Shown here: positions 10,458-11,114 of the stretch, piece by piece
Numbering within the stretch: position 1 is the first letter of the stretch
How the letters are laid out: each line of letters starts with the position of its first letter
Assembly: GCF_965641715.1 (NCBI RefSeq)
Contig: NZ_OZ282453.1
Origin: Escherichia coli
GTDB lineage: Bacteria > Pseudomonadota > Gammaproteobacteria > Enterobacterales > Enterobacteriaceae
Strand: one strand, 5' to 3'
DNA length: 64,000 bases
Made by a program: the position numbers and the translations under genes
The notes under the pieces: generated by a model
Database searches by the model: none
The model's input: only the letters and a program-made list of their open reading frames with translations
Told to the model about the DNA's origin: nothing

Positions 10458-10499
10458 ATCTTCGGACTATGCTTATCTAAGTGGTTCATTGAACAGGAG

Positions 10500-10540
10500 A
10501 ACAATGATATGAGTGTTAAGGCAAGAATACTAGTGCTTTA
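10500..10540. other. Element-host junction (attR-like) inside the first codons of wrbA
   Basis: wrbA N-terminus reads [12 protein letters not shown] here versus MAKVLVLYY recalled for K-12; sequence matches host from about 10533 onward. Confidence 0.5.
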
Positions 10541-11114
10541 TTATTCCATGTACGGACATATTGAAACGATGGCACGCGCAGTCGCTGAGGGTGCAAGCAA
10601 AGTGGATGGCGCTGAAGTTGTCGTTAAGCGTGTACCGGAAACCATGCCGCCGCAATTATTTGAAAAAGCAGGCGGTAAAACGCAAACTGCACCGGTTGCA
10701 ACCCCACAAGAACTGGCCGATTACGACGCCATTATTTTTGGTACACCTACCCGCTTTGGCAACATGTCCGGTCAAATGCGTACCTTCCTCGACCAGACGG
10801 GCGGCCTGTGGGCTTCCGGCGCACTATACGGAAAACTGGCGAGCGTCTTTAGTTCCACCGGTACTGGCGGCGGTCAGGAACAAACCATCACATCCACCTG
10901 GACGACCCTTGCGCATCACGGCATGGTGATTGTCCCCATTGGCTACGCAGCGCAGGAATTATTTGACGTTTCACAGGTTCGCGGCGGTACGCCGTACGGC
11001 GCAACCACCATCGCAGGCGGTGACGGCTCACGCCAGCCAAGCCAGGAAGAACTGTCTATTGCTCGTTATCAAGGGGAATATGTCGCAGGTCTGGCAGTTA
11101 AACTTAACGGCTAA
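10509..11114 (+). CDS. wrbA: NAD(P)H:quinone oxidoreductase WrbA (hybrid 5' end supplied by the element)
   Basis: Translation matches WrbA from residue about 6 onward; new RBS AGGAG and start from element-side sequence. Confidence 0.9.

Follow-up and report, generated by a model that had tools for sequence, protein, structure and literature searches.

Serine integrases are known to place mobile elements within bacterial genes, as in phiC31, Bxb1 in groEL1, A118 in comK, and SPbeta in spsM; to our knowledge, these classic cases split or inactivate the target gene. A second strategy is seen at icd, where element-borne sequence restores the 3′ end of the target gene (PMC3603311); phage 21 and e14 both carry a duplicated 3′ end of icd, which leaves an in-frame, near-identical gene end after integration. 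The gene wrbA is a well-known integration site of Stx phages, and the same genome survey lists it as a prophage-disrupted gene (PMC3603311). In Escherichia coli O157:H7, the Stx2 phage 933W/Sp5 replaces the 5′ end of wrbA with element DNA; its tyrosine integrase is codirectional with wrbA, and the integrase stop codon overlaps the new wrbA start (ATGA).

Here, we analyze a stretch of 64,000 nucleotides from an E. coli genome (contig NZ_OZ282453.1; herein the window) in which wrbA is joined to an island of ∼11 kb. Like the phiC31, Bxb1, A118, and SPbeta systems, the island encodes an integrase with resolvase catalytic and recombinase domains (and a near-threshold zinc ribbon match) and targets a site within a gene; the att sites are short, with little identity between attP and attB (7 bp here), imperfect dyad symmetry, and a putative non-palindromic 2-bp crossover. 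Unlike those phages, its attP bears a replacement translation start that restores the open reading frame, and the element is an island of ∼11 kb rather than a complete phage, with tape-measure and Dit-like genes and no recognized capsid or terminase genes. It resembles the icd elements in restoring an in-frame, near-identical gene end and differs from them in replacing the 5′ end and in using a serine rather than a tyrosine recombinase; because the 5′ end is replaced, the island must supply a ribosome binding site (RBS) and, by implication, a promoter. Target-gene rebuilding is a known strategy, of which the 5′-end version with a serine integrase is less commonly described; the wrbA island is thus a clean new instance of an established strategy and does not represent a new kind of system. 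Literature searches found nothing specific linking wrbA to a serine integrase and no description of this element.

We consider the following explanation to have a probability of roughly three in four. The serine integrase would recombine attP of the ∼11-kb island with an attB of ∼40 bp spanning wrbA codons 1 through 12, with strand exchange probably at a GT in codon 6 (Val) of the native gene. The left arm of attP, which directly adjoins the integrase gene on its upstream side, would bring a Shine-Dalgarno sequence and an in-frame ATG that begins a run of eight codons, so that MSVKARIL replaces the native MAKVL and the attR junction restores full-length WrbA. The native promoter, RBS, and first five codons would remain ∼11 kb away at attL, ending in a 10-codon stub, and the chimeric gene would be transcribed and translated from island signals. 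Three elements of this account are direct observations: the anatomy of the junction, the crossover block, and the finding that the arrangement is conserved across genera. Positions of the features are collected in Table 1.

Table 1. Features of the wrbA junction, with coordinates in the window unless a related locus (L number) is named
Feature	Position	Strand	Basis or remark
Right-hand ∼10.5 kb of integrated island	1..10532		Pfam and PHROG matches; alignment to L002
Large serine integrase, 547 aa	8814..10457	−	Pfam, PHROG
Island-derived 51-bp spacer between integrase and wrbA start codons	10458..10508		Sequence; invariant in four E. coli copies
Chimeric wrbA, 201 aa	10509..11114	+	Host sequence from codon 9 on
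Island-encoded wrbA codons 1 through 8 (M S V K A R I L)	10509..10532	+	Sequence; three-way alignment
Approximate attR site, island left half and host right half, GCTTTATTATTCCATGTA	10511..10556		Dyad-symmetry analysis
Half-site GTGTTAAGG	10513..10521		Within former attP left arm (10509..10532)
7-bp identity block GTGCTTT	10533..10539		Common to attB, attP, attL, and attR
yccJ, downstream partner in wrbA-yccJ operon	11135..11362	+	Annotation in related genomes
attL stub loci	L002 7076..7108; L009 3132; L039 9254; L005; L011		Native promoter points into island
Klebsiella WrbA start			MSSSELRGKPRILVLYY; extension MSSSELRGKPRI-LVLY
Enterobacter and Pantoea WrbA start			MTDEVRGKARI-LVLY
Erwinia WrbA start			MQDEERVKARI-LVLY
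Hafnia WrbA start			MSEEKRGRTRILVLYH; extension MSEEKRGRTRI-LVLY

Host-Island Boundary

A megablast search with window 10300..11200 matched 5,417 of the 5,426 complete E. coli genomes. Leftward beyond query position 231/234 (window 10530/10533) only 72 matches continue, all of them over a gene annotated as “recombinase family protein”; in thousands of E. coli genomes that lack the island, similarity ends exactly at this point. In a three-way alignment, identity with K-12 is perfect from GTGCTTTATTATTCC rightward, with only scattered resemblance to the left. On this comparison we assign everything left of window 10533 to the island. Genomes without the insert have ymdF and rutG directly upstream of wrbA; in carriers these genes lie 10.9 to 13.1 kb away, and related full copies of the island span 10,885 to 11,007 bp between ymdF and wrbA. 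As the window starts inside the insert, the left junction (attL, beside ymdF) falls outside it.

A sequence-only reading of this DNA had proposed that the start of wrbA is rewritten by the element, a view that would sit badly with the same upstream sequence occurring in element-free strains. The upstream sequence, represented by a 156-bp probe (10380..10535), is carried by 73 of the 5,426 complete E. coli genomes. Every match in these genomes covers at least 80% of the probe and hence includes the 5′ end of the integrase gene (73/73 genomes); a recombinase gene lies under all 60 of the matches listed, and none of the 73 carriers has the MSVKARI-encoding sequence without the integrase gene. These data refute the idea that MSVKARI is a natural wrbA allele unrelated to the island, which we reject: the recombinase gene abuts the sequence in 73 of 73 genomes, island-free genomes lose similarity at 10530/10533, and the displaced native start is found at attL. 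In one carrier, strain DCE7 (NZ_CP090611.1), the integrase/wrbA junction probe matches twice, and the additional copy is not within 20 kb of wrbA.

Reconstituted WrbA

As comparator we used wrbA of the K-12-lineage strain KLY (L001 1486..2082; 198 aa as translated). The translations begin with MAKVLVLYY in K-12 and with MSVKARIL in the window, so that the difference in N terminus noted from the sequence, including the K-12 start given there, is borne out by alignment both to K-12 and to the crystallized protein. Residues 5 through 201 of the window protein correspond to residues 2 through 198 of WrbA in Protein Data Bank (PDB) entry 2r96, the sole differences being ARI in place of AKV; K→R and V→I are thus the only changes in the remaining 197 residues (195/197 identical). 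Both Pfam FMN_red and Flavodoxin_1 match the window protein, and the sequence of the N-terminal strand and the FMN phosphate loop is present. From WrbA structures, we take the retained N-terminal segment, including LVLYY, to form the first β-strand and the FMN phosphate loop. Constructs of WrbA with 33 extra N-terminal residues have been solved (PDB: 7q6n, 7q6m), which makes it unlikely that folding suffers from a short extension. Judged by its sequence, the reconstituted WrbA is full length, with a three-residue extension and two conservative changes, and its first strand and FMN loop are untouched.

The translation signals belong to the island as well. A Shine-Dalgarno sequence, AGGAG, lies in island DNA at 10495..10499, 9 nt ahead of the ATG (10509), a layout that can be set beside that of native K-12 wrbA (GAGGAG, a 9-nt spacer, ATG, MAKVL). 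AGGAG, ATG, and codons 1 through 8 are all island DNA, in agreement with the proposal that the RBS and first codons of wrbA are element-encoded.

A different outcome is seen in an O157-type genome (ERL05-0623; L003 2900..3080, corresponding to window ∼10550..10555), where similarity to the window starts at 10555, ∼22 bp downstream of the island crossover, and the annotated WrbA starts MINHILRHVETMA, without the LVLYYSMYG strand and loop. We considered and rejected the identity of the island with a 933W/Sp5-type Stx prophage, given its serine integrase, a junction ∼22 bp upstream of the O157 junction, and the lack of a match in a phage collection. Two unrelated recombinases thus use sites ∼22 bp apart in the head of wrbA, one breaking the protein and the other rebuilding it. 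The gene wrbA is structurally intact in the ∼1.3% of complete E. coli genomes that carry the island, though the gene is usually scored as disrupted when prophage-occupied; because wrbA is intact in carriers, occupancy assays and gene-presence calls should distinguish the island from Stx phages.

To the right of the junction the native gene order is retained in the window (wrbA, yccJ, agp, yccE, cbpA). The wrbA-yccJ operon is named in PMC4161252, and yccJ, as the downstream partner, depends on whatever transcribes wrbA. The gene annotated in relatives as encoding a YccE family protein is a 416-aa open reading frame at window 12923..14173 (− strand) without a Pfam match; the O157-type strain has a frameshift in yccE, and L002 and L039 retain only a fragment of the gene.

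Integrase and Island Content

The 547-aa protein encoded beside wrbA is classed by its domain matches as a large serine integrase. Pfam Resolvase (PF00239) matches residues 5 through 155 with 43 bits (cut-off 23.3), the motif YIRWSTKEQ lies at residues 7 through 15 near the N terminus, and Pfam Recombinase (PF07508) matches residues 194 through 302 with 71.9 bits. Zn_ribbon_recom scores 22.1 bits over residues 319 through 368, just under its cut-off of 25.3; four Cys (326, 328, 348, and 356) are invariant in an alignment of the integrase family. The protein also matches PHROG 95 (integrase; E = 2e-78).

The cargo comprises a Dam-type methyltransferase-HTH fusion, an HNH endonuclease, a tape-measure protein, a Dit-like tail protein, and several unmatched open reading frames. 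Pfam and PHROG searches of the island reading frames recognized no capsid, terminase, or replication genes and identified no recombination directionality factor. A megablast search of 50,697 phage records gave no match to the integrase-junction region, and an exact search of IMG/VR viral contigs for the reconstructed attP gave none either; neither search thus points to the island occurring excised or packaged. By gene content, we classify the element as a small phage-related integrative island of ∼11 kb, not a Stx-type prophage.

In the 222-aa fusion (window 597..1265, + strand), a Dam-type N6-adenine methyltransferase domain is joined to a resolvase-type HTH domain. In the related copies L002, L010, and L039, a small serine recombinase is encoded by a gene of its own close to the left end. 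The cargo module (window 1..8794; Dam-HTH, HNH, tape measure, Dit-like) occurs in 560 of the 5,426 E. coli genomes, often in two to six places each; many of these matches end at 8794, and therefore the same cargo travels with other integrases. Having tail genes without capsid or terminase genes, the module could be a satellite or a remnant.

Attachment Sites and Crossover

Comparison of K-12, the window, and three E. coli carriers defines the recombining sites. In K-12, attB is GAAATGGCTAAAGTTCTGGTGCTTTATTATTCCATG, which can be written ...ATGGCTAAAGTTCTG-GT-GCTTTATTATTCC; in the window, attR is ATGAGTGTTAAGGCAAGAATACTAGTGCTTTATTATTCCATG, or ...ATGAGTGTTAAGGCAAGAATACTA-GT-GCTTTATTATTCC; and in carriers L002, L009, and L039, attL is ATGGCTAAAGTTCTGGTGCTTTTACATAG(A/C)TAAACACG, which in parts reads ATGGCTAAAGTTCTG-GT-GCTTT-TACATAG(A/C)TAAACACG. 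The identity shared by these sites is confined to the 7-bp block of Table 1. Homologous islands in two other genera have different blocks: CTGGT in Klebsiella michiganensis (attL ...ATTCTGGTCAGCTTACATACC) and AATTCTGGT in Pantoea dispersa (attL ...AAAATTCTGGTCATCTTAC). On the wrbA sequence, the Klebsiella and Pantoea blocks end where the E. coli block begins, and the three intersect only at GT (window 10533..10534).

Strand exchange by serine integrases takes place at a 2-bp overlap that has to be identical in the two partner sites. Assuming that the homologues cut at the same place, GT at 10533..10534 is therefore the probable crossover dinucleotide; it is non-palindromic, which is what a site of defined polarity would be expected to be. 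Around GT, 13 to 14 of 26 positions of the reconstructed attP are dyad-symmetric (∼6.5 expected), with outer half-sites CGTG(T/G)TAAGG paired with CTAAACACG. Symmetry in attB is weaker (ATGG(C/A)(T/A)AA, which includes the wrbA start codon), and dyad-symmetry scoring of attB gives equal scores to other centers. As symmetry scoring by itself fails to single out GT in attB, the call rests on the intersection of the three elements. A crossover near 10525..10540 had been suggested from the sequence; the att-site comparison agrees and narrows it to 10533..10539, and probably to the GT. For a large serine integrase of the Enterobacteriaceae, this gives a natural attB/attP pair with precise map positions; pairs of this sort are the raw material of integrase-based genome engineering.

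Homologous Islands at wrbA in Other Genera

Integrase homologues with 61 to 65% identity are found in K. michiganensis, Enterobacter hormaechei, Erwinia, P. dispersa, and Hafnia psychrotolerans (a fragment). All of them are divergent from wrbA, with start codons 40 to 51 bp apart, and in the window and these five other genera alike the insertion lies in the open reading frame and element DNA restores an in-frame gene start. The resulting WrbA extensions range from three to eight residues across lineages (Table 1), and each homologous locus has its own AGGAG-like Shine-Dalgarno sequence 5 to 9 nt before the in-frame ATG. Integrase relatives with 35% identity or less, and one from Mangrovibacter with 51%, are not beside wrbA; among the relatives compared, only the clade with at least 61% identity targets this gene.

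Conservation across lineages is uneven. About 22 bp beside the crossover are conserved, CGTG(G/T)TAAGGC(A/C)AGAAT(A/T)CT, and correspond to the attP half-site; in the spacer and the earliest codons, divergence has gone too far for alignment. Since the RBS and the in-frame ATG persist even though the spacers cannot be aligned, the pattern argues for selection that keeps wrbA translatable. The K-A-R-I codons fall within the attP half-site, so their conservation may instead reflect integrase binding; two of the three reading frames through the attP left arm are open. Among four E. coli copies, the 89 bp at 10444..10532 (first integrase codons, spacer, and wrbA head) show no differences; the neighboring integrase coding sequence of the same copies has up to 9 differences in ∼145 bp.

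The substitute 5′ end might also be a piece of a foreign wrbA, captured by imprecise excision from an earlier host rather than shaped on attP. Upstream of the core, 14 of 20 bases are those of the native sequence (GGCAAGAATACTAGTGCTTT vs. GGCTAAAGTTCTGGTGCTTT), and there is a further short resemblance upstream, CTTATCT...AAGTGGT. The resemblance ends within ∼20 bp of the crossover, though, and coincides with the dyad-symmetric integrase half-site; the starts MSV-, MTDEVRG-, and MQDEERV- are unlike any native WrbA start among those compared; and the 40 to 51 bp between wrbA and the integrase gene leave no room for a captured promoter region. We regard capture as highly improbable and a replacement start borne on attP as the better account of this segment.

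In Mangrovibacter yixingensis (L012 9880..10020), the 51%-identical serine integrase is divergent from the start of rlmB, ahead of which ATGAGTGAAA occurs twice (MSEKLS-MSEMIYG). This suggests the same targeting and rebuilding of a gene head at a different host gene and hints that integrases of this clade habitually target the heads of genes.

Transcription of the Chimeric Gene

The sequence-only reading had described wrbA as divergent from the integrase gene with overlapping control regions. The start codons, at 10457 (−) and 10509 (+), are indeed only 51 bp apart, so the control regions must overlap. With 40 to 51 bp between start codons across the lineages, a wrbA promoter would overlap the first integrase codons, and by the same geometry the integrase promoter would lie within ∼75 bp of island DNA or in the wrbA coding sequence. 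In carriers the native promoter lies at attL, ∼11 kb off, so any wrbA-yccJ transcript has to originate in island DNA; that the wrbA promoter is element-encoded follows by logic only, from the more than 10 kb of island DNA that separates the native promoter from the gene. The further suggestion that wrbA expression is coupled to the state of the island is speculation.

Promoter searches gave no clear candidate. A consensus scan of 10100..10508 found no promoter-like site on the wrbA strand; when the 160 bp preceding the ATG were scored with a weight matrix in six lineages, shuffled sequence was never beaten, 71 to 98% of shuffles being as good; and in the window and five other lineages, the wrbA strand of the 160 to 400 bp of upstream island DNA has no sigma-70-like promoter that exceeds chance. 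By eye, a weak sigmaS-like −10 candidate, CTATGCT, can be seen at 10467..10473, at a level not above shuffled sequence. The sigmaS −10 consensus is CTAYRCT, and a comparably placed TGCTACGCT is found in Enterobacter, Pantoea, and Erwinia. We treat this candidate as a lead, not as evidence.

These results bear on a different reading of the locus, in which insertion switches wrbA off, the chimeric reading frame is a by-product of attP/attB resemblance and of gene calling from the first ATG, and wrbA-yccJ is silent or weakly read. The failure of any promoter-like site upstream of wrbA to exceed chance in six lineages is what such silencing predicts, the conserved K-A-R-I codons coincide with an integrase half-site, and the survey cited above counts wrbA among prophage-disrupted genes (PMC3603311). 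Simple consensus scans nevertheless miss many real promoters, including sigmaS ones; five diverged lineages whose spacers cannot be aligned all retain a good Shine-Dalgarno sequence and an in-frame ATG; and the O157/933W-type phage illustrates true disruption at wrbA, with the FMN loop replaced. Silencing is accordingly an unlikely reading, and we favor a chimeric gene that is expressed from island signals. The locus provides a compact test case of how a mobile element rewires the expression of a host stress gene.

At attL, the native start reads into a 10-codon stub. In E. coli this is MAKVLVLLHR before the stop codon (MAKVLVLLHS in L009 and L039), in Klebsiella MAKILVSLHT, and in Pantoea MAKILVILLS; the position of the TAA is the same in all three genera, and this stop codon belongs to the conserved attP right half-site. 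A mapped native wrbA transcription start was not found in the literature searched; we take the native promoter to be a stationary-phase, sigmaS-dependent one. From this geometry, integration may effect a reciprocal promoter swap, in which the native promoter comes to drive the stub and the genes at the left end of the island and wrbA-yccJ passes to a bidirectional region of 40 to 51 bp shared with the integrase gene. We hold this to be decidedly unlikely as a whole; if true, stationary phase of the host would govern island genes, and wrbA expression would mirror how the island integrase is regulated.

In several copies, the next gene on the strand of the native promoter, ∼0.5 kb downstream, encodes the small serine recombinase and has a promoter-like site of its own. 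In L002, this gene is preceded at 7460..7610 by several copies of a TGAGAC-containing motif in both orientations, and the promoter-like sequence TTGAGA-17-TAGAAT lies at 7497..7525.
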